Assembly (NCBI GenBank): GCA_963818525.1
Contig: CAWFSO010000004.1
Coordinates: 49,624 to 113,623, forward strand
DNA from: an uncultured Rikenellaceae bacterium
Lineage (GTDB): Bacteria; Bacteroidota; Bacteroidia; Bacteroidales; VadinHA17
DNA: 64,000 bases
Direction: 5' to 3'
The notes under the pieces are model-generated. The model searched no databases. It was not told the DNA's origin and worked only from the letters and a program-made list of their open reading frames with translations. A program made the translations under genes and the position numbers. Below, piece by piece: positions 22,566-43,175 of this stretch; the first letter of the stretch is position 1; each line of letters starts with the position of its first letter.

Positions 22566-24524
22566 CTAGATCTCCTTCTTTAATATGATGACCTCTGCCT
22601 GTTTGCGAATGATTTCAGAATAGAATTTCCTGATTGAGGCGTACCTATCGGGAAGGTAGGTGACGGTGGAGAAGCTGATCTCCGACTCAAGCGTGACCTT
22701 TCGGCCGTCAGCGCTGATGTTGTAGATGAACCCGGCTCCTCCCCCATCCATTCGCAAATTTACCGACTGAGGAAGTTCTGCTACGGTCCATCCCTCGGGA
22801 ATGGTTATGGTGCATCTGTATTTCTCCGTTGAGGGGCATGTCAGGTCAATCACCGAAATACGCTCTTCGGCGTAAAATTCATTCGATTCCTTGCGGCCAT
22901 ACAGGACAGGATTCAGGTACATGAAACCGTCGCCATTGTCTGTGGCCCCCGGGATGGCAAGGCTGATCCTCTCAATGACCGGTTCCTCCGGCTTTTCGAG
23001 GTTTTCAAGCTCAAGACCTGAAATTTTCCAGTCTGAATAGACTGACTGCATAAAATCGCGGTAAGCCTCGGTTCCCTGGAGGGAACAGGTCTTCCTCACC
23101 ATCCATGCGTAATAGCTCTCATAGACGTTGGTTGCCTTTCCGGTCAGGCCGCCCTTTTCATCCAGCTCCATTTCGAGGGAGACTGTTTCGCCGTAATGCT
23201 CACCATTGTTCAGGTCTACCCATGACCCTCCCAGTTCGTCAACCAGCCATCCCTGTCCGTTGAGGCACTCCTCCGGCAGCATGTTGAACGGCCTCAGAGG
23301 GTCGGTAGCGTCGATGACATATACTTTCCCCTCTGCCGTTGCTGCAACAGCCACATGATTGAACTTCCTGATGATCGCGAAGAAGGGGTTAACCAGGCCA
23401 TGTTCGCGCGTACTGAGTATCAGCGGATCCGCCTGTAACCCGGCCATCCTGAGCATTGCCAGGAGCATCAGGTTAATGTCTGCCGCATTACCCCGCGCGT
23501 CCTCATAAATTTTTGACATTGAGGCGGAAGCGGTGAAGTCGGAGTAACCGTTCCACATCATATAATCGGAAACCCAGGTAAAGATGCGTCTGAGAATATC
23601 TGTTTCAGATCCTCCCATTGACTTAAGCTCATCTGCCTTTTTCCTGACCACTGCAGCCTTATCAATGTAACCTCCGAAATCTGTCCGGGCCAGCAGCTTC
23701 TCCGAAAGTCTGGGGTAGGTAGGCGAGACCTCCTCGAAGTAGTAACCGGGGATATTGATCTTTGAGAGTTCGAACCCGATCCTCGCGTAAAAGTCCTCCG
23801 AGCCGGTGCTGAACGGCTCCTCACGGTAAGCCGGTATGTTGTTTCCTCTCCATGTCCCAGAGAATCCTTCAACACTGCTGTCTCCGAACAGAACCCTTCG
23901 CTGCCCGCTGTTGTACCTGATGCCGAAGAGATTTCCGCCGGGCACGAATTTGTACTCGAAATAGCCGGGGAACTCGACCTGGAAATTGCATCTCCTGACG
24001 GGGATGTCATGCTGGAACTCCAGGGTATAGAGGGTAAAGTAGTCAGGGCTCTCCAGGGTGTACCTGTATTCAATCACCGTGCCGGGCCTGACATTTGGGA
24101 CCGAGAAACGCAGTGTGCTCGTGTAACGGCTCGTATTTTCATAATAGAGACTCTTTTTGTCGACCAGGCTCTGCACGGTAACCCCATCTTCCAGGTTATA
24201 GGCCGCAGCCCTCATCCCTATGATCTTCTCATCACTGCCATAGGGCAGCTCGACATTGGCGTAATCGAGCCCGTCGGTATTGATGATCTTGATCCTCACA
24301 TGGCAATCGGTAACGACGGTGATCTTCTCGGCGGATCGCATACTTACCATGGCATGGTTTTCCAGGATCACGGCATCAGCCGACGGATCGGGTTCATACA
24401 CTGCCATTTCAAGATCCTCCTTCGGGATCTCGCCGAAGGTGATCTCTTTGATCTGGCCGGCTAGTGATGTGCTGAAGGCCAGGGAGACCAGGCTCAAGGT
24501 TATCAGTCGAAAAGAATTGTGCAT
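22566..24524 (-). CDS. DUF3857 / transglutaminase-like protein (catalytic Cys apparently replaced)
   Basis: 652 aa with a signal peptide. The equivalent core reads ARGNAADINLMLLAMLRMAGL...FNHVAVA, with Ala in place of Cys. It lies 5 nt from the downstream paralog. Confidence 0.7.
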   Translation of the reverse strand: MHNSFRLITLSLVSLAFSTSLAGQIKEITFGEIPKEDLEMAVYEPDPSADAVILENHAMVSMRSAEKITVVTDCHVRIKIINTDGLDYANVELPYGSDEKIIGMRAAAYNLEDGVTVQSLVDKKSLYYENTSRYTSTLRFSVPNVRPGTVIEYRYTLESPDYFTLYTLEFQHDIPVRRCNFQVEFPGYFEYKFVPGGNLFGIRYNSGQRRVLFGDSSVEGFSGTWRGNNIPAYREEPFSTGSEDFYARIGFELSKINIPGYYFEEVSPTYPRLSEKLLARTDFGGYIDKAAVVRKKADELKSMGGSETDILRRIFTWVSDYMMWNGYSDFTASASMSKIYEDARGNAADINLMLLAMLRMAGLQADPLILSTREHGLVNPFFAIIRKFNHVAVAATAEGKVYVIDATDPLRPFNMLPEECLNGQGWLVDELGGSWVDLNNGEHYGETVSLEMELDEKGGLTGKATNVYESYYAWMVRKTCSLQGTEAYRDFMQSVYSDWKISGLELENLEKPEEPVIERISLAIPGATDNGDGFMYLNPVLYGRKESNEFYAEERISVIDLTCPSTEKYRCTITIPEGWTVAELPQSVNLRMDGGGAGFIYNISADGRKVTLESEISFSTVTYLPDRYASIRKFYSEIIRKQAEVIILKKEI

Positions 24525-24609
24525 CGCTTTGATAAGGTTAACAGTCGAAAAAGATTATGCATCGCTTTGATAAGGTTAACAGTCGAAAAAGATTATGCAT
24601 CGCTTTGAT
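24504..24609. repeat. 38-bp tandem repeat (about 2.8 copies) that duplicates the start codon and first codons of the 22566..24524 gene
   Basis: The copies are at 24504-24541, 24542-24579 and 24580-24609. Copies B and C both read cagtcgaaaaagattatgcatcgctttgat; the full 38-bp unit continues aaggttaa, whereas copy C diverges after tttgat. Copy A differs at a few positions and holds the annotated ATG (24524). Confidence 0.9.
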
Positions 24610-32125: not shown

Positions 32126-34728
32126 TCCCTAAGCGTCGCTATCTTAGACCGTGCATCCGCCTCCTTCTTCCTCTCAAGCGTCAGGACCTTCTCCGGCGCA
32201 TTGGCGACGAACTTTTCGTTCGAGAGCTTCTGCATTACCGATGCGAGGAACCCCTCCGTGTAGGCCAGCTCCTCCTCCAGCTTCCTGATCTCATCCTCAT
32301 GGTCGATCCCGGCTGTCAGCGGCACGAAGAATTCAGAGGTGTGTATCCTGAATGAGGCCGCACCTTCAACTTTGCCTTCCACAATGCGTATCTCCGAGAG
32401 GTTGCACAGCCTGGTGATGACCTGGTCAAACTCCGTCCCGGTGGTGCCGGCGACGGCACAAAGTACCAGCGGCTCACGTACCGGAATATTTCTCTCCTTG
32501 CGTATTGCGCGCACTGCGGTAACTATCTCCTTCGCCGTCTCAAAGCGTGTCAGCATACCTGCCTCATAGGGTGCGGGAAGGGGCATCTGCTCAACCATGA
32601 TGCTCTCCCCCTCTTTCCTTTCACCCAGCCTCTGCCATATCTCCTCGGTGATAAAAGGCATGAACGGATGGATGATCTTCATCAGCGTCTCAAAGATCTC
32701 AAGTGTCTGTTTGTGAGTCTTGCCATCCATCGGCTCTTTGTAAGCTGGCTTAATAATCTCCAGGAACCATCCCGAGAAGTCATCCCAGAAGAGCTTGTAG
32801 GCCTGCATCAGCGCGTCGGAGATGCGGTAACGCACAAAGCTGTCATCGATATCCGCCAGCGTCTTGCTGATGGTGTCCTGCATCCAGTGCACCGCAGCCT
32901 TTGATGCCTCAGGCTGCTCAAGGGTCTCATCGGTGGGCATGGTTATCACGAGACGGAACGCGTTCCAGATCTTGTTGGCGAAGTTGCGGCCCTGCTCCGG
33001 CAGGCTGTCATCGTAAAGAAGATCATTGCCTGCAGGCGAACAGAGAAGCATGCCTACCCTCACGCCGTCAGCCCCGTACTTCTCCATGAGAGTGATTGGG
33101 TCAGGCGAGTTGCCGAGCGATTTCGACATCTTGCGCTTCTGCTTGTCACGCACGAGGCCGGTGAGGTATACATCATGGAATGGCTCCCTCCCGCGGTACT
33201 CATACCCTGCAATTATCATCCTGGCAACCCAGAAGAAGAGTATCTCCGGGGCGGTGACAAGGACATTCGATGGATAGTAATATTTTATGTCAGCATTGTC
33301 GGGGTCATTGATGCCGTTGAAGCATGTGATTGGCCAGAGCCATGATGAGAACCATGTGTCAAGGACATCTTCATCCTGCCTCAGGTCTTTCAGGGTAAGG
33401 TCCTGCCTGCCGCTGGCCTTGCGTGCCATGTCGAGAGCCTCCTCTTCGCTTTCGGCAACCACGAATTCATTGTTACTGTAATAATATGCCGGGATGCGCT
33501 GACCCCACCACAGCTGCCTGCTGATGCACCAGTCGCGGACATTCTCCATCCAGTGCCTGTAGACATTCCTGTACTTGTCGGGATAGAGACTCACGGTGTC
33601 ATCCATGACCGCCTCAAGGGCAGGCCTGGATAAATCCTTCATGCTCAGGAACCACTGCAGCGACAGCTTGGGTTCAATCACTGCATGGGTACGTTCCGAG
33701 CGCCCTACCTTATTTATATAATCCTCAACCCTGACGAGGGCTCCGGTTTTGCGGAGCTCCTCCTCCGCAAGCTTCCGGGCTTCGAACCGGTCAGTGCCGA
33801 CGAACAGTCCGGCCCTCTCGCTGATGGTTCCGTTATCATTGAAGATATCAATGGCTTCGAGGTTATACTTCACCCCTATCTCATAGTCGTTGATGTCATG
33901 CGCGGGAGTGATCTTCAGGCATCCCGTACCGAACTCCTTGTCGACATACTCGTCGAAGATGAATGGGACCTCACGCCCCGTCATCGGGACGATGACATGT
34001 TTTCCCTTCAGGCCGGCATAGCGCTCATCAGTCGGATTGGCGCAGACGGCCGTGTCGCCGAGGATGGTCTCAGGCCTGGTGGTGGCCACCATTACATAAT
34101 TATCCTCGCCCACTATTTTATAGCGCACGTAATAGAGCTTCGACTGCTCCTCGGTGTATATAACCTCCTCATCCGAGACGGCGGTCAGAGCCTGCGGATC
34201 CCAGTTGACCATGCGCACGCCTCTGTATATAAGGCCCTTTTTATACAGGTCGATGAAAACCCTGATCACTGATTTATACCGGTCGTCATCCATGGTGAAG
34301 AGGGTGCGGTCCCAGTCGCACGATGCCCCCAGGCGCTTGAGCTGCTCGAGGATGATGCCTCCGTGCTTGTGCGTCCACTCCCATGCATGGTCAATGAATT
34401 CCTCCCTCGATATTGACTTCTTGTCAATGCCTTCGCTGCGCAGCTTGGCAACAACCTTGGCCTCGGTGGCGATGCTTGCATGATCGGTGCCCGGCACCCA
34501 GCAGGCATTGAAACCCAGCATGCGTGCACGCCTGACAAGCACATCCTGGGTGGTGTTGTTCAGCATGTGACCCATGTGCAGCACCCCCGTCACATTTGGC
34601 GGCGGGATGATAATGGTATAAGGCGTTCTGCCGTCAGGGACACTGCGGAAAAAACCCTTATCCATCCAGTATTTGTACCATTTGTTCTCCGCGGCGGCGG
34701 GCTCATATTTTGAAGGAAGACCGGTCAT
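32101..34728 (-). CDS. valS: Valine--tRNA ligase
   Basis: 875 aa. It has the HIGH-type motif [18 protein letters not shown], an editing domain and a C-terminal coiled coil. Confidence 0.95.
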
Positions 34729-34731
34729 TGA

Positions 34732-34876
34732 ATTTGCGATTTGCGATTTGCGATTTGCGATTGGGGGATGTGGTGAGATTTGCGATTTGCGATTTGCGAT
34801 GGGGATGTGGTGAGATTTGCGATTGGTGGTTGTGATAAGATTTGCGACTGTCGATTTGCGATTTGCGATTGCGATT
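34732..34876. repeat. Heptamer microsatellite array (ATTTGCG)n with higher-order structure, abutting the valS start codon
   Basis: Four perfect ATTTGCG copies lie at 34732-34759. Then come GGGGGATGTGGTGAG, three copies, GGGGATGTGGTGAG and further interrupted copies. The array begins 3 nt from the valS ATG (34728). Confidence 0.9.
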
Positions 34877-35069
34877 AACAGTGATGCGTTAATTTATAAT
34901 TTACTGTGATATTTTATTGATAATAAATATATTACAAGCTCTCTTTGATTTATCGATTTATAAACCGGTATTTCAATATGTAAGGGGCAAAATTAACAAT
35001 TTGTTGCCATTATGGAAAAAGGAGAGTGAGCTTATGCCTAAAATCATGGTTCATTAAGGTGAATTTGAA

Positions 35070-35077
35070 TACATTTG
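35070..35077 (+). promoter_or_regulatory. Candidate Bacteroidota -7 promoter box (TAnnTTTG) for the aminotransferase gene
   Basis: TACATTTG lies 37 nt upstream of the ATG at 35114, in an AT-rich intergenic region. Confidence 0.35.
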
Positions 35078-35113
35078 CGCTTCATTTTGCAAATGGATTA
35101 AAGAGTATAAGTC

Positions 35114-36313
35114 ATGCCAAAGATCTCAGAAAAAGCCGGGAAAATGCCGGCATCGCCGATACGCAAACTCGTTCCCTATGCCGAGGAGGCAAAGCGTAAG
35201 GGCAGAAAGGTATACCACCTGAATATCGGGCAGCCTGATATCCACACTCCCGAACTGGCACTCAAGGCACTCAGGGAAACGGATATCAAGGTGATTGAAT
35301 ATACTCACTCCGCCGGGAATGAATCATACCGCCGCAAGCTGGCAGAGAGCTACCGGAAAATCGGCGTCGATGTTGACCACACTGAGATCATCGTCACAAC
35401 CGGTGGGTCCGAGGCAGTGCTGTTTGCATTCATGTCATGCCTCGATCCGGGTGAAGAGGTGATCACCTTCGAACCATTTTACGCCAACTATAACGGCTTT
35501 GCCACCTCTGCCGGAGTAACCATCGTACCGGTGAGGTCATTTATCGAAAATGACTTCGCACTGCCTCCCATCAGTGAGATCGAAAAGAAGATCACACCGA
35601 AGACAAAAGCCATCCTTATCTGCAACCCCAACAACCCGACAGGCTCACTCTATTCGAAGGAGGAGCTGATGCAGCTTCGAGACATAGTGAAGAAGTATGA
35701 CCTGTTCCTATTCTCTGACGAAGTGTACAGGGAGTTTTGCTACGGCGCAGACCATTTCTCAGCCATGGAGCTTGAGGGGATAAGGGAGAATGTGGTGCTA
35801 CTCGACTCTGTGTCAAAACGATACAGCATGTGCGGGGTGCGCATCGGCGCCCTGATCACCCACAACAGGGAGGTGCTGGCGGCCGCTCTAAAGTTCGGCC
35901 AGGCAAGGCTATGCCCTCCGGAGCTTGGACAGATAGTTGCCGAAGCGGCTCTTGACACGCCCAAAGAGTATTTTGATGCTGTCTACAATGAGTATATAGC
36001 CCGCCGCGACTTCATGGTCGAGGCTCTTAACAATATGCCGGGCGTCTATTGCCCGATGCCCCGCGGTGCTTTCTATACGGTGGTGAAGCTGCCGATAGAC
36101 GACTCCGACAGGTTCGCGCAGTGGCTGCTTGAGGACTTCAGTTACAACAACCAGACGGTGATGGTGGCGCCCGCAACGGGGTTCTATTTCACTCCCGGCG
36201 CCGGCAAGAACGAGGTGCGTGTTGCCTATGTGCTGAAGATCGATGACCTCCGCAAGGCGATGGAAACCCTGGCCGAGGCGCTGAAGGTCTACCCGGGAAG
36301 AATTATGAATTAA
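35114..36313 (+). CDS. PLP-dependent class I/II aminotransferase (aspartate/aromatic aminotransferase-like)
   Basis: 399 aa. It has the PLP-lysine motif SVSKRYSMCGVRIG, plus NPNNPTGSLYS and DEVYREF blocks. Confidence 0.88.
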   Translation: MPKISEKAGKMPASPIRKLVPYAEEAKRKGRKVYHLNIGQPDIHTPELALKALRETDIKVIEYTHSAGNESYRRKLAESYRKIGVDVDHTEIIVTTGGSEAVLFAFMSCLDPGEEVITFEPFYANYNGFATSAGVTIVPVRSFIENDFALPPISEIEKKITPKTKAILICNPNNPTGSLYSKEELMQLRDIVKKYDLFLFSDEVYREFCYGADHFSAMELEGIRENVVLLDSVSKRYSMCGVRIGALITHNREVLAAALKFGQARLCPPELGQIVAEAALDTPKEYFDAVYNEYIARRDFMVEALNNMPGVYCPMPRGAFYTVVKLPIDDSDRFAQWLLEDFSYNNQTVMVAPATGFYFTPGAGKNEVRVAYVLKIDDLRKAMETLAEALKVYPGRIMN

Positions 36314-36330
36314 AAATTAAGAATTAAGAG

Positions 36331-36699
36331 TTATTGGCTAGGGTCAGGATGAAGTTTCTGAGTCATTGTCTTTTTTATTGACCCTGTTATCTTTAACAAC
36401 TCTTCAAGATCTGTCATAAGTTCTTCTGCCTCAGGTTTTTCTATAAGATCAGAATCCCTCAGTAGCTTGAGCCAGAATATAGTTTCACGGCATTCTTTAT
36501 ATGATATGCTGATTTTTGACAGAAAATCTCGCTCTGATTGACCTCCGACAGCCTCTTCAATATTAGCGGCGATAGATGTACCGCTTCTCAGGATCTGACG
36601 TGACAATTCAAATTCGTTCTGATTTTTAAGTGAAAGGTACAATCTTACAATTTTCAAAGCCAGGGCATAACTCTTCTCTATTGCAATATTTTCCTTCAT
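36331..36699 (-). CDS. Four-helix-bundle protein (23S rRNA intervening-sequence protein family)
   Basis: 122 aa. Family-typical sequence is YALALKIVRLYLSLK...LSRQILRSGTSIAANIEEAVGGQSERDFLSKISISYKECRETIFWLKLL. The gene is visibly more AT-rich than its neighbours. Confidence 0.8.
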   Translation of the reverse strand: MKENIAIEKSYALALKIVRLYLSLKNQNEFELSRQILRSGTSIAANIEEAVGGQSERDFLSKISISYKECRETIFWLKLLRDSDLIEKPEAEELMTDLEELLKITGSIKKTMTQKLHPDPSQ

Positions 36700-36741
36700 A
36701 ACCCCCTCATTACAAATTTCTTAATTCTTAATTATTAACTC

Positions 36742-37917
36742 TTAATTATATATAAGGTACTTCGCGCGGATGATCTTGAATTGATCAAGCCCCTCCTTCC
36801 ACGTGGCTTTGATCTCTTCCGCCGTCATACCCTGGATTATCTGCTCACGCAATGTGCTGCTGCCTGCCAGGGTGTCAAAATATCCGTTGAAGAAACTCTC
36901 TTTCTCAGGATAGGCATTGTAGGCATCAATGATCCATCCGAGGTTCATCTCCGGCTTCGGAACGATGCCGTCAGTCAGCGCGTTCCGCAGGTCGGTGCCA
37001 TAACACACCACCCCGTTATGCTTCGGGTTCGATGCACCGAAAGTGGGTTGCGGCGTGAAGCTGAAGCCTGTGTCGGGCATCTTCGGCGCCCCCAGCACCT
37101 GGAACGGAAACTCCGTACCCCTGCCGCACGAGAGCACTGTCCCTTCGGCAAAACATAAAGAAGGATAGAGATAGATCGAATTCATGTTGGGGAGGTTGGG
37201 CGACGGTATGACCGGCAGCTCATACATCGTTGCATGAGTATAGTTTTCGCATTGAATAACCTTAAGATCGCACTTCACACCCTTTGCCAGCCACCCCTCT
37301 CCGTTGACCATCCCGGCATATTCGCCCAGCGTCATCCCATGCACCACGGGGATAGGGTGTATCCCCACAAAGGAACTGTATCCGGCGGTGTCAAGGATGG
37401 GTCCGTCAACATAGAAACCATTGGGATTGGGACGGTCGAGGACGATGAACTGCTTGCCGTTCTCGGCACAGGCCTCCATGACGTAACACATTGTGGTCAG
37501 ATAGGTGTAGAACCTTGTCCCAACATCCTGGATGTCAAAGATGACGACATCGATTCCTTCAAGGTCTTCAGCCGCCGGTTTCTTCTTGTTTCCATAGAGA
37601 CTCATAACATTGATGCCCGTGACGGGATCGGTACCTGAGGTTATTTCCGCACCGGCATCGGCCAGGTCCCTGAAGCCGTGCTCAGGAGCGAAGATCAGTT
37701 TTATGTTTGCACCCAGCGAGAGCAGGGTGTCAATCAGATGGGCACCGCCAACCATTGAGGTCTGGTTGGCCACCACGGCAACCGTTTTGCCTCCAATCAG
37801 CGGGAGGTACTCGCTGATTCGCTCAGCGCCGGTCGTGAGCCTGTTGTCATTTTTGTCAGCTGAACATGCCGTGCCGGCCGTCACCAGAAGAAAGGTCAGT
37901 ATGAAAAGGTTCTTCAT
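36742..37917 (-). CDS. DUF1343-family protein (exo-beta-N-acetylmuramidase NamZ-like)
   Basis: The ORF is trimmed to the MKNLFILTFLLVTAGTACS signal peptide. Family-like blocks are VAVVANQTSMVGGAHLIDTL, IFAPEHGFRD, VIFDIQDVGTRFYTY and VLDRPNPNG. Confidence 0.7.
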   Translation of the reverse strand: MKNLFILTFLLVTAGTACSADKNDNRLTTGAERISEYLPLIGGKTVAVVANQTSMVGGAHLIDTLLSLGANIKLIFAPEHGFRDLADAGAEITSGTDPVTGINVMSLYGNKKKPAAEDLEGIDVVIFDIQDVGTRFYTYLTTMCYVMEACAENGKQFIVLDRPNPNGFYVDGPILDTAGYSSFVGIHPIPVVHGMTLGEYAGMVNGEGWLAKGVKCDLKVIQCENYTHATMYELPVIPSPNLPNMNSIYLYPSLCFAEGTVLSCGRGTEFPFQVLGAPKMPDTGFSFTPQPTFGASNPKHNGVVCYGTDLRNALTDGIVPKPEMNLGWIIDAYNAYPEKESFFNGYFDTLAGSSTLREQIIQGMTAEEIKATWKEGLDQFKIIRAKYLIYN

Positions 37918-38084
37918 AATATCTTCGTTTTCGGTAAAGTTAAAAAAGCCGCGCAGAATGACCAAAGAATCCGTAAAGTCGGCTAAAAACTGTTAAAGAC
38001 TCGTTCAAATACCAGTCGATGACGATAGGAGTCGTCCGGCTATCATGCAGTCAGGAATACAGACCGGCTACTTCACTGCCAGTA

Positions 38085-38150
38085 ATTCATTCAATTCGCA
38101 ATTCATAATTGCAATCGCAAATCGCAAATCTTAAATCGAAATTCCTAATT
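38085..38150. repeat. Degenerate heptamer array (AATCGCA-type) immediately upstream of the lolE-like gene
   Basis: The sequence reads aattcgc aattcat aattgca atcgcaa atcgcaa atcttaa atcgaaa ttcctaa. It has the same orientation relative to its downstream gene as the valS array. Confidence 0.8.
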
Positions 38151-38158
38151 TTGCCCTG

Positions 38159-39403
38159 ATGTCCACCGGATCCTTCATAGCCCGCCGCCTGATAAAGGAA
38201 CGCACTCATGGAACAGCCTTCTCACGCCCGATAAACGTGATAGCCATCATCGGCATCGCGCTCGGTCTGGCGGTGATGATCCTCGCCGTCTCCATACTGA
38301 CAGGCTTCAAGCAGCAGATACGCGATAAGGTGGCAGGCTTCGGGGCACACATCCAGGTTGTGAACTTCGATGCGAACATCTCATACGAGACAGTGCCCGT
38401 CAGTGCCTCCCAGTCGTTCGTTGAAAAGATAAGAAACCACCCGGGAATTAAAAACATCCAGGTCTTCGCCACCAAGGCAGGCATCATCAAGACCGATGAC
38501 AACATCCAGGGGGTGGTGCTCAAGGGCATTGGCAGCGATTACGACTGGAGTTTCTTCGAATCGAACATGGTGGAAGGTGAGGTGGTGACGGTATCCGATA
38601 CCGCCAGGACTGACAACGTCATCATCTCCAGCAAGGTGGCTGACATGCTCGGACTGAAGCTTGGCGACTCCTTCTCGATGTTCTTCGTACAGGATCCGCC
38701 CCGAATGCGTAAGTTTACCATCCGTGGGATCTATGAGACCAGTCTCGAGGAGTTCGACAAAACCTACCTCTTCTGCGACATAGCCCACATAAGGAGTCTG
38801 AACGGATGGGAAGACGACCAGGTCAGCGGGTTTGAGGTCTCCGTGAACGACTTCGACGACCTTGATGTCATGACCGACGTCGTGCGCGACGCCATTGGCT
38901 ACAGGGTGGCCGAGGAGGAGGAACAGCTCAAGGTCACAAACATCAGGAACAGATACCCCCAGATATTCGACTGGCTGGGGTTCCAGGACACCAACGTGAT
39001 CATCATCCTTATTCTCATGATACTGGTCGCAGGGTTCAACATGATATCGGGACTGCTTATCCTGATCCTCGAAAAGACCAACATGATCGGTGTCCTGAAA
39101 GCCATGGGCGCAGGCAACAAAGTCATCCGAAACATTTTTCTTTACCAGGCGGCATGGCTTACCGCCAAGGGGCTACTCTGGGGTAATATCATCGGGTTGG
39201 GACTGGCGATGCTGCAGCTGAAGACCGAATTGATTTCTCTCGACCCCTCCTCATACTACCTGAAAAGCGTTCCGATCAATCTTGACCCGCTCCATATCAT
39301 CCTCCTGAACGTCGGAACGATGCTAGCCATCATTCTTATGCTCCTTATACCATCTCAGCTCATTGCCCGTATCACACCCGTCAAGGCCATCCGATACAAC
39401 TGA
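38159..39403 (+). CDS. FtsX/LolE-family ABC transporter permease
   Basis: 414 aa. It has an N-terminal TM helix, a MacB-like periplasmic domain and a C-terminal FtsX domain of three TM helices (ILMILVAGFNMISGLLILILEKTNMIGVLKAMGA). Confidence 0.85.
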   Translation: MSTGSFIARRLIKERTHGTAFSRPINVIAIIGIALGLAVMILAVSILTGFKQQIRDKVAGFGAHIQVVNFDANISYETVPVSASQSFVEKIRNHPGIKNIQVFATKAGIIKTDDNIQGVVLKGIGSDYDWSFFESNMVEGEVVTVSDTARTDNVIISSKVADMLGLKLGDSFSMFFVQDPPRMRKFTIRGIYETSLEEFDKTYLFCDIAHIRSLNGWEDDQVSGFEVSVNDFDDLDVMTDVVRDAIGYRVAEEEEQLKVTNIRNRYPQIFDWLGFQDTNVIIILILMILVAGFNMISGLLILILEKTNMIGVLKAMGAGNKVIRNIFLYQAAWLTAKGLLWGNIIGLGLAMLQLKTELISLDPSSYYLKSVPINLDPLHIILLNVGTMLAIILMLLIPSQLIARITPVKAIRYN

Positions 39404-43100: not shown

Positions 43101-43175
43101 GATTTGCGATTTGCGATTTGCGATTTGCGAATTTTGATTAAATCGACAATCGAAAATCCGAAATCGAAAATTCCT
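43101..43175. repeat. Heptamer array with inverted halves between the convergent genes gatD and mltF
   Basis: (GATTTGC)x4 is followed by gaattttgattaaa and then tcgacaa tcgaaaa tccgaaa tcgaaaa. The second half approximates the reverse complement of the first, so an imperfect long hairpin is possible. Confidence 0.85.

Follow-up and report, generated by a model that had tools for sequence, protein, structure and literature searches.

A PF05635 gene between inverted heptamer arrays in a Bacteroidales genome, and its likeness to 23S rRNA intervening sequences

The 23S rRNA intervening sequence (IVS) in Coxiella burnetii lies in helix 45 and carries an open reading frame (ORF) of the S23p/PF05635 family, with tandem GACAGAT heptamers upstream in a copy number that depends on the strain (PMC4990558). 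RNase III cleaves its 28-bp terminal stem in vitro, and the resulting ends have been located by rapid amplification of cDNA ends (RACE); the suspicion that the IVS is a selfish or mobile element is of long standing, and its ORF has been judged to be decaying (PMC4990558). Here we describe a PF05635 gene bracketed by inverted AATTAAG arrays, between namZ and an aminotransferase gene, in a 64,000-nt stretch of DNA (the window) from an uncultured Rikenellaceae bacterium (assembly GCA_963818525.1, contig CAWFSO010000004.1, positions 49,624 to 113,623). The Coxiella IVS, which the initial annotation of this DNA had missed, is the closest precedent for this cassette: the same anatomy in another location. 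Both have a PF05635 ORF, a terminal inverted-repeat stem (~28 bp in Coxiella) and tandem heptamers of variable copy number beside the ORF. The cassette differs in lying between protein-coding genes rather than in rRNA, in its AATTAAG rather than GACAGAT unit, and in an ORF under purifying selection rather than in decay. We see about an even chance that the cassette is a free-standing 23S rRNA IVS-type element, that is, a heritable PF05635 gene with two inverted AATTAAG arrays that would be processed at the RNA level.

Tandem heptanucleotide repeats were first described from about 1990. They include the short tandemly repeated repetitive (STRR) sequences of cyanobacteria, the GGGAATC repeats of Xanthomonas and the GGGGATT repeats of Nostoc (PMC4692102), and the paired sites of Geobacter metallireducens (PMC2700814). 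Like the arrays studied here, the published ones consist of tandem 7-nt units, typically in 3-6 copies and mostly intergenic near gene ends; they also often form convergent inverted pairs and vary in copy number between relatives (PMC4692102, PMC2700814). They have been read as G-quadruplex formers or as sites of unknown regulators, without a link to PF05635, whereas here the arrays frame a PF05635 gene.

The sole established role of the PF05635 family is that of Avd, a reverse-transcriptase cofactor, and a cryo-EM study reports all five Avd protomers contacting an RNA stem-loop just downstream of the gene region (bioRxiv 10.1101/2023.10.23.563531). The 122-aa protein encoded in the window is homologous to this pentameric four-helix-bundle barrel, which binds a structured RNA encoded beside its own gene. 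Unlike Avd, the protein is acidic, and no reverse transcriptase was found near its gene among the ORFs scanned; heptamer arrays are not mentioned for diversity-generating retroelements (DGRs) in the parts of the Avd literature consulted.

In REPIN-RAYT systems, a single-copy gene is flanked by inverted short repeats that are also scattered gene-free, singly and as inverted pairs, through intergenic regions. The present arrangement resembles them: inverted copies of a repeat frame a gene, and the repeat is also found scattered with no gene beside it, in the window, in relatives and for the unit GATTTGC. It differs in that RAYT is a Y1 HUH transposase and repetitive extragenic palindromic (REP) sequences are palindromic, whereas here there is no recognisable catalytic domain and the repeats are period-7 tandem arrays. 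A general association of PF05635 genes with heptamer arrays was not described in the literature that we searched, including by repeat strings and family names. An IVS-type element with heptamers was already known from Coxiella rRNA, and what appears to be new is a candidate IVS-type element outside rRNA together with a gene-array link across the family.

The cassette and its gene

The cassette consists of the following features.

36331-36699, minus strand: PF05635 four-helix-bundle gene, 122 aa, of the 23S rRNA intervening-sequence / Avd-like family (TIGR02436)
36700-36717, minus strand: 18-nt leader from the 5' arm to the start codon, sense strand atttgtaatgagggggtt, with a purine run GAGGGGG just upstream of the ATG
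36718-36749, minus strand: 5' arm, sense strand AATTAAG AGTTAAT AATTAAG AATTAAG AA, with the namZ stop codon (36742-36744) inside it
36298-36333, minus strand: 3' arm, sense strand CTCTTAA TTCTTAA TTTTTAA TTCATAA TTCTT, starting at the stop codon of the PF05635 gene

Tandem Repeats Finder (TRF) reports period 7 at 36298-36333 (5.1 copies) and 36718-36747 (4.3 copies), and the segments 36301-36329 and 36719-36747 are inverted arms of 29 nt that are 90% complementary. The inverted period-7 arrays that the initial annotation had placed around the gene are therefore real, the left one starting at 36298 and being slightly longer than first described. All three neighbouring stop codons lie inside the arrays: that of namZ falls in the first unit of the 5' arm, that of the PF05635 gene (36331-36333) is the first TAA of the 3' arm, and on the plus strand the 3' arm holds the last five aminotransferase codons and their stop codon (36311-36313). 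The pattern AATTANGAATTANGAATTA, with up to two mismatches, occurs eight times in the window, six of them in the two arrays of the cassette, and not once in 100 shuffles. At a strict threshold the window contains three short-period arrays of period 7 and none of periods 5, 6 or 8-11.

As RNA, the arms form a predicted duplex of 27 bp at -24.6 kcal/mol, compared with -7.5 +/- 2.3 for 1000 shuffles, and the minimum-free-energy fold of the cassette is closed by this array stem, as expected of an IVS. The arms resemble the terminal inverted repeats of a DNA transposon or a miniature inverted-repeat transposable element (MITE) in form only.

The encoded protein scores 93.2 bits with PF05635 (23S_rRNA_IVP; Pfam, cutoff 33.8, E 1.4e-26) and 103.4 bits with TIGR02436 ('four helix bundle protein', cutoff 24). 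PF05635 is the only Pfam family that it matches, and it is not a Y1 HUH transposase. The conserved family motif GxxRxxxSxxxNxxE (PMC3936711) is present, with R38, S42, N46 and E49 invariant in a 16-sequence alignment and Q35 in place of the leading G in this subfamily. Searched with a profile of these 16 sequences, the nearest solved structure is 2RLD (E 7e-43, five chains), and 2GSC, the Xanthomonas pentamer XCC0516, also with five chains, is a weak match; we infer that the 122-aa protein forms a pentamer of four-helix bundles. No PADLOC defence family matched it at E <= 0.01, and an Rfam search of 34600-38300 returned nothing at E <= 1.

The PF05635 gene is the sole ORF inside the cassette and has no second copy in the 64-kb window. 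It lies between the aminotransferase gene on the plus strand (35114-36313) and namZ on the minus strand (36742-37965), rather than inside a 23S rRNA gene at helix 25 or 45; because namZ and the PF05635 gene are both on the minus strand, namZ is its upstream neighbour on the same strand. The wider neighbourhood includes valS, the aminotransferase gene, namZ, an FtsX-like gene, gatB, a gatD-like gene, SLT-domain and porin genes, glutamine synthetase and ftsZ. A Pfam scan of ORFs that lie in the interval 22.5-48.5 kb and are 180 aa or longer, which took in some but not all of them and left two of those scanned without a match, turned up no reverse transcriptase; a DGR context was rejected on this basis.

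The gene is also more AT-rich than its neighbours, as first noted, with a G+C content (GC) of 0.38 and a third-position GC (GC3) of 0.34, compared with 0.53 and 0.65 for namZ. In 200-nt windows, GC is 0.33-0.42 over the PF05635 gene and 0.54-0.60 over the flanking genes.

Gain, loss and age at the orthologous site

Orthologues at 75-84% identity (P0008, P0012 and P0021) occur in the same namZ - gene - aminotransferase - valS arrangement. Every orthologous locus has (AATTAAG)n upstream and (CTTAATT)n downstream, with 3-7 copies, so that variable-copy heptamers lie beside the ORF as in the Coxiella IVS; the 5' arm has 4-6 AATTAAG copies in the loci L001, L007 and L008 (comparison loci are cited by such numbers). 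The ratio of nonsynonymous to synonymous substitution rates (dN/dS) between the gene and these orthologues is 0.04-0.10, with synonymous sites saturated and dN similar to that of namZ, which indicates that the protein is functional and the cassette old at this locus. The cassette has thus been vertically inherited here under purifying selection. Selection acts on the arrays as well, as seen in the persistence of AATTAAG in four lineages despite saturated synonymous sites and diverged leaders; the spacer between array and start codon, unlike the arrays, has diverged among the orthologous loci.

The same comparison bears on base composition. The GC3 of the PF05635 gene is 0.34-0.41 in the four orthologous lineages, where that of namZ is 0.65-0.69, so the AT bias is maintained and does not mark a recent transfer. 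Family-wide, the GC of the gene rises and falls with that of the host (r = 0.90), at a constant offset of ~0.08 below it. AT-richness was therefore rejected as a sign of recent arrival.

To compare presence and absence, namZ homologues at 66-93% identity were fetched with their contexts and a NamZ tree was built. In L095, whose NamZ is 71-73% identical to that of the window, synteny is the same and the stop codons of namZ and the aminotransferase gene are 4 nt apart, with neither gene nor arrays between them. L102 (NamZ ~70%) and L096 (66-67%) have short spacers at this junction, likewise without gene or arrays. In the tree L095, L102 and L096 are outgroups and the cassette-bearing loci form a clade. 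These data show that the cassette entered between the convergent stop codons of namZ and the aminotransferase gene in an ancestor of this Bacteroidales clade. As the empty orthologous sites have no arrays, the arrays arrive with the gene and are not pre-existing targets, which makes it unlikely that gene-free arrays are the empty or ancestral target sites that had been suggested.

Nested within the cassette clade, L097 and the pair L093/L100 lack the gene at the namZ junction, and the simplest history is that the unit was gained once, as a whole, and lost again later in some lineages. L097, with a NamZ 93% identical to that of the window, has an unrelated insert and an IS110-family-like transposase gene nearby. 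In the rearranged loci L093 and L100, the genes that come after namZ are those for the SLT-domain protein and the porin, which sit at 43.2-46.8 kb in the window.

Further observations were made at these loci. In L097 (4214-5514) and L099 the cassette site is occupied by ~250 nt that are unrelated to it and have the inverted repeat cctctacgaggaat/attcctcgtagagg at their two ends; the transposase gene after this insert in L097 was identified as IS110-family-like by eye from its N-terminal sequence, and a possible remnant, TAATTCCTGTAATTG, follows the namZ stop codon in this closest cassette-less relative. The gene order in L093/L100 is the expected product of inverting the namZ-to-gatD segment, and the junction in L100 retains no arrays. 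The contig L092 (4245-4288; 93% NamZ identity) stops 43 nt past namZ, within a degenerate AATTAAG array, where the repeats may have broken the assembly. In L007 (4370-4520), downstream of the cassette, a ~48-nt segment of the aminotransferase 3' end (…cttcccgggtagaccttcagtgcctcggggagcgtcagtt…) is tandemly repeated at least twice.

The presence or absence of a whole unit at an orthologous site is what would be expected of a DNA-level mobile element, in which the arrays would be terminal inverted repeats or homology arms, moved in trans by a recombinase or by homologous recombination or gene conversion among arrays with the same unit at scattered genomic sites, and gene-free inverted pairs would be MITE-like derivatives that lack the ORF. 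Both breakpoints of the apparent L093/L100 inversion also fall in intergenic regions that bear arrays in the window, namely the cassette site and 43101-43171, as such an element could explain. Yet no transposase or integrase was found in or adjoining the cassette, comparison of filled sites (window, L001 and L008) with the empty sites in L095, L102 and L096 revealed no target-site duplication, and the cassette is a single copy in 64 kb that has been stable here until synonymous sites saturated. We consider this explanation unlikely on the whole. The initial proposal of a small mobile cassette is thereby upheld in part: the unit is gained and lost whole and occurs in many contexts, but at this site it is old and vertically inherited rather than recently mobile.

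Architecture and heptamer units across the family

A family scan, with one genome per species, yielded 80 loci encoding relatives at 48-64% identity in more than ten phyla, covering Verrucomicrobiota, Bacteroidota, Ignavibacteria, Gamma- and Deltaproteobacteria, Bdellovibrio, Chloroflexota, candidate phyla, Planctomycetota, Acidobacteriota and Nostoc. Nearly all 80 loci have AATTA[C/G/A]G arrays upstream and the complement downstream. The best period-7 score (maximum 21) averaged 16.2 upstream and 15.5 downstream in 78 loci, compared with ~10 for other periods (4-11), and with 10.2 upstream and 10.7 downstream for 128 control genes in the same loci. An inverted-complementarity score of at least 12 was reached by 74% of family loci versus 2% of controls (Mann-Whitney p = 4e-21). 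The arms match better within a locus than between loci (p = 1e-9), and their dominant variable base is the same in 35 of 53 loci, where 18.7 are expected by permutation. The spacing from one AATTA core to the next is exactly 7 nt in 177 cases, and 55 of the 80 family genes have their stop codon in the first TAATT of the array downstream. Flanks of the kind that the initial annotation proposed to look for on other family members are thus common, so that the refutation it had named, paralogues without them, is not borne out, and in these comparisons a gene with inverted heptamer arrays is a rule of the family and not a local oddity.

One alternative is that the flanking arrays are ordinary AT-rich simple repeats or terminator-like hairpins with no functional link to the gene. 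Heptamer arrays do occur gene-free in the window and elsewhere, and heptameric repeats have been reported as over-represented in bacterial intergenic regions (PMC4692102). Against these stand the contrast with control genes in the same loci, the co-variation of the arms, the conservation of arrays at orthologous loci despite saturated synonymous divergence, and the persistence of the architecture with different units in distant subfamilies; together they render this alternative highly improbable.

If the cassette is a free-standing IVS, it would be transcribed by read-through from namZ, and its arms would pair into a ~27-bp stem closing a ~400-nt loop that contains the ORF. RNase III, on the model of the Coxiella IVS, could then cut the array stem and release the ORF RNA, and such cutting may allow the element to reside at the ends of genes and within operons. 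The read-through proposal draws on two observations: no sigma-70-type promoter or intrinsic terminator was found in 36150-36900, including the gap between namZ and the PF05635 gene, by a scan not tuned to Bacteroidota, and the upstream neighbour is co-directional in 66 of 71 family loci, with a median gap of 54 nt. The periodic arms may double as a binding site of the pentameric protein, a suggestion prompted by homology to Avd, which grips an RNA stem-loop, and by the co-variation of heptamer unit with protein clade described below.

Several results weigh against this RNA-processing scheme. The fold z-score of the cassette RNA is modest (-2.35). Upstream co-directionality is a weak signal, barely above the 83% baseline in these loci (p = 0.011), and downstream it is not above baseline. 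Arm mismatches comprise 34 G.U-compatible and 38 A.C pairs and so carry no strand-specific RNA signal; arm complementarity is therefore just as well explained by DNA-level pairing or by an origin in recombination. A plain substrate stem for RNase III could have any sequence; that the AATTA core is nevertheless conserved implies that more than pairing is selected. The isoelectric point (pI) of the 122-aa protein is 5.5, and this acidity, unlike the basic Avd, weakens the case for nucleic-acid binding. Finally, same-orientation or composite arrays occur in L039, L043, Bernardetia and Treponema.

Two properties of the arms are those expected under DNA-level mobility: their mismatches are free of RNA-specific wobble bias, and their lengths of 21-42 nt are near the minimum for homologous recombination. 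Arm polarity is near-uniform within the subfamily of the window but reversed in Dolichospermum and Planktothrix relatives, so a universal polarity rule was rejected, and this variation between subfamilies counts against DNA-level mobility.

Apart from the same-orientation and composite loci, distant relatives keep the architecture with other heptamer units, the complement again lying on the opposite side. The units are as follows.

Bdellovibrio locus, second paralogue: ATTTAGA
Shapirobacteria locus, second paralogue: GATAACT
Euhalothece plasmid: TGGTCAC
Treponema plasmid: CTCTCCG
Anabaena cylindrica plasmid: AAAAAGT
Nostoc punctiforme plasmid: AATTCGC
Planktothrix plasmid: AATCCCC / AATCGTA
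Gloeocapsa and Chlorohelix: ATTTTAG
Nostoc C057: AGATTGC
Dolichospermum: CGTAATT

Units with a GATTT core were found in eight of eight members of one protein clade, from Bdellovibrio, Bacteroidota, Cyanobacteriota, Chloroflexota and two metagenome contigs (L123 and L188). In one Bdellovibrio locus, a paralogue of each clade is present, 1.4 kb apart, each with the unit of its own clade. Within a neighbour-joining tree of small sample and no support values, the heptamer unit thus appears to follow the protein clade and not the host. Such agreement points to sequence-specific recognition, for which the pentamer that the gene encodes is the simplest candidate; gene and arms inherited together as a single unit could also produce it without any binding.

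A third explanation builds on such recognition. The arrays would be candidate binding sites, in RNA or DNA, of the encoded pentamer, the gene being autoregulated between its own sites and the gene-free arrays of its unit, in 5' and 3' untranslated regions, forming a regulon or REPIN-RAYT-like progeny. The agreement of unit type with protein clade, across phyla and within one locus, favours it, as does the retention of the AATTA core regardless of host GC (0.31 to 0.63). Of the 186 GGGAATC sites in Xanthomonas campestris, array #15 overlaps the start annotated for XCC0516, a coincidence listed without comment (PMC4692102 supplementary table); XCC0516 is the PF05635 pentamer of structure 2GSC. 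The AATCCCC flank in Planktothrix is the reverse complement of the Nostoc GGGGATT repeats, and all five Avd protomers contact RNA. On the other side, the acidic protein and the sufficiency of co-inheritance to explain the clade-unit correlation, together with the many arrays that have no such gene nearby (below), leave this explanation possible but rather doubtful.

Gene-free arrays and insertion contexts

Three gene-free heptamer arrays elsewhere in the window, whose existence the initial annotation had mentioned, were located.

34732-34876: ~20 GATTTGC units in a 37-nt higher-order repeat (TRF), directly upstream of the valS start codon
38092-38150: mixed array of AATTCGC, AATCGCA and AATTAGG-like units (TRF), in the gap between the divergent namZ and FtsX-like genes
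43101-43171: inverted pair of (GATTTGC)4, a 10-nt loop and (AAATCGA)-type units, between the convergent 3' ends of the GatD-like and SLT-domain genes

The higher-order repeat in the valS leader consists of three GATTTGC units followed by GATTGGGGGATGTGGTGA and ends a few bases from the valS start. In relatives this leader has ATCGCAA arrays in L007 and L008 and one unit in L001, and none in the outgroups L095 and L102. The array at 38092-38150 is probably the same class of element as the cassette arrays; the corresponding namZ/FtsX gap holds (AATTAAG)n over ~200 nt in L007 and in four copies in L008, and none in L095 and L102. No strict period-7 arrays were found in ~7 kb from each of the three cassette-less outgroups. 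Gene-free arrays of the cassette's own unit near the locus in relatives, and the restriction of intergenic arrays around the locus to the cassette-bearing clade, are in keeping with arrays that serve as binding sites of the encoded protein. In L008 (2666-2710), a G+C-rich (GCCCTGC)n period-7 array shares the FtsX/namZ gap with (AATTAAG)4, so that unrelated heptamer units co-occur in one intergenic region.

Further tandem repeats in the window, unrelated to the cassette, are 45-nt and 33-nt purine-rich repeats at its start (60-334) and a 38-nt unit present three times (94% matches) at 24496-24609, which covers the 5' end of ORF 22566-24524 (DUF3857) as well as the interval between this ORF and the next gene.

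Beyond this locus, (GATTTGC)3 was found in 120 metagenome contigs (L104-L223), and an adjacent PF05635 gene in only two of them (L123 and L188, of the other clade). No PF05635-family gene was near (AATTAAG)3 in any of 62 viral contigs carrying that array. As the gene is lacking beside 118 of the 120 GATTTGC arrays and all 62 viral AATTAAG ones, arrays alone do not predict it, which tells against arrays as binding sites of an encoded neighbour; arrays appear in these collections to far outnumber genes.

The orientation of the gene-free arrays carries a signal of its own. An inverted partner lies 16-504 nt downstream (GATTTGC … GCAAATC) of 21 of the 120 GATTTGC arrays, and the opposite arrangement was not seen; as the two arrangements are not reverse complements of each other, 21 to 0 is a true polarity bias, such as a polar element moving at the DNA level would leave. 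The pair at 43101-43171 has the same polarity as all 21.

Cassettes are also found in unrelated contexts, including the inside of operons (L288 from Anabaena cylindrica pANACY.01, L290 from Pseudanabaena, L292 from Gloeocapsa, L293 from Chlorohelix, and L063/L074/L091). Positions there include between cas2 and cas1, and next to cas1. In a cyanobacterium and a member of the Chloroflexota the cassette lies between a DUF1156 gene and a Swt1-family HEPN gene, and in three Bacteroidota/Ignavibacteria loci between two efflux-pump genes, as judged from flanking coding sequence alone. In L030 (2900-3570), and similarly in L034, it sits in the 3' end of a restriction-modification gene encoding a 610-aa DNA methylase/specificity fusion. 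The upstream heptamer arm in L030 is translated within the methylase/specificity protein (…EIEGYQEEIRNYELQIKNCHDKIAKAVNKVWG…), and a diverged second copy of the C-terminal coding segment (IVAEIEAEQALVAANRELITRFEKKIQATLARVWGEEE) follows directly after the downstream arm; this arrangement looks like the footprint of an insertion or recombination event. Positions inside unrelated operons, and within a restriction-modification gene whose displaced C-terminal fragment is still there, speak for movement at the DNA level. The context of L024 is related to that of L030 and L034.

PF05635-family genes in CRISPR-cas, restriction-modification and other defence operons have been published as functional partners of those systems. 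Our findings raise the possibility that such genes in cas, restriction-modification and defence operons may be inserted cassettes rather than functional partners.

We tentatively suggest, at less than even confidence, that PF05635 pentamers may be the protein partners of bacterial heptanucleotide arrays, including STRR, GGGAATC, GGGGATT and the Geobacter sites. On this proposal, the pentamers and their heptamer units would co-evolve by clade, the gene would lie between inverted arrays, and the gene-free arrays at the starts and ends of genes, which are far more numerous, would be its targets, as an RNA or DNA regulon, or its progeny, in a selfish system resembling REPIN-RAYT but built on a new protein that is not a transposase. 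The over-representation of heptanucleotides is left unexplained in the literature consulted (PMC4692102). The PF05635 family is large, with 7,918 clusters at 50% identity detectable from the window protein alone. If the gene-array link is true, two puzzles, this large family and the unexplained tandem heptanucleotide repeats, would become one testable question.

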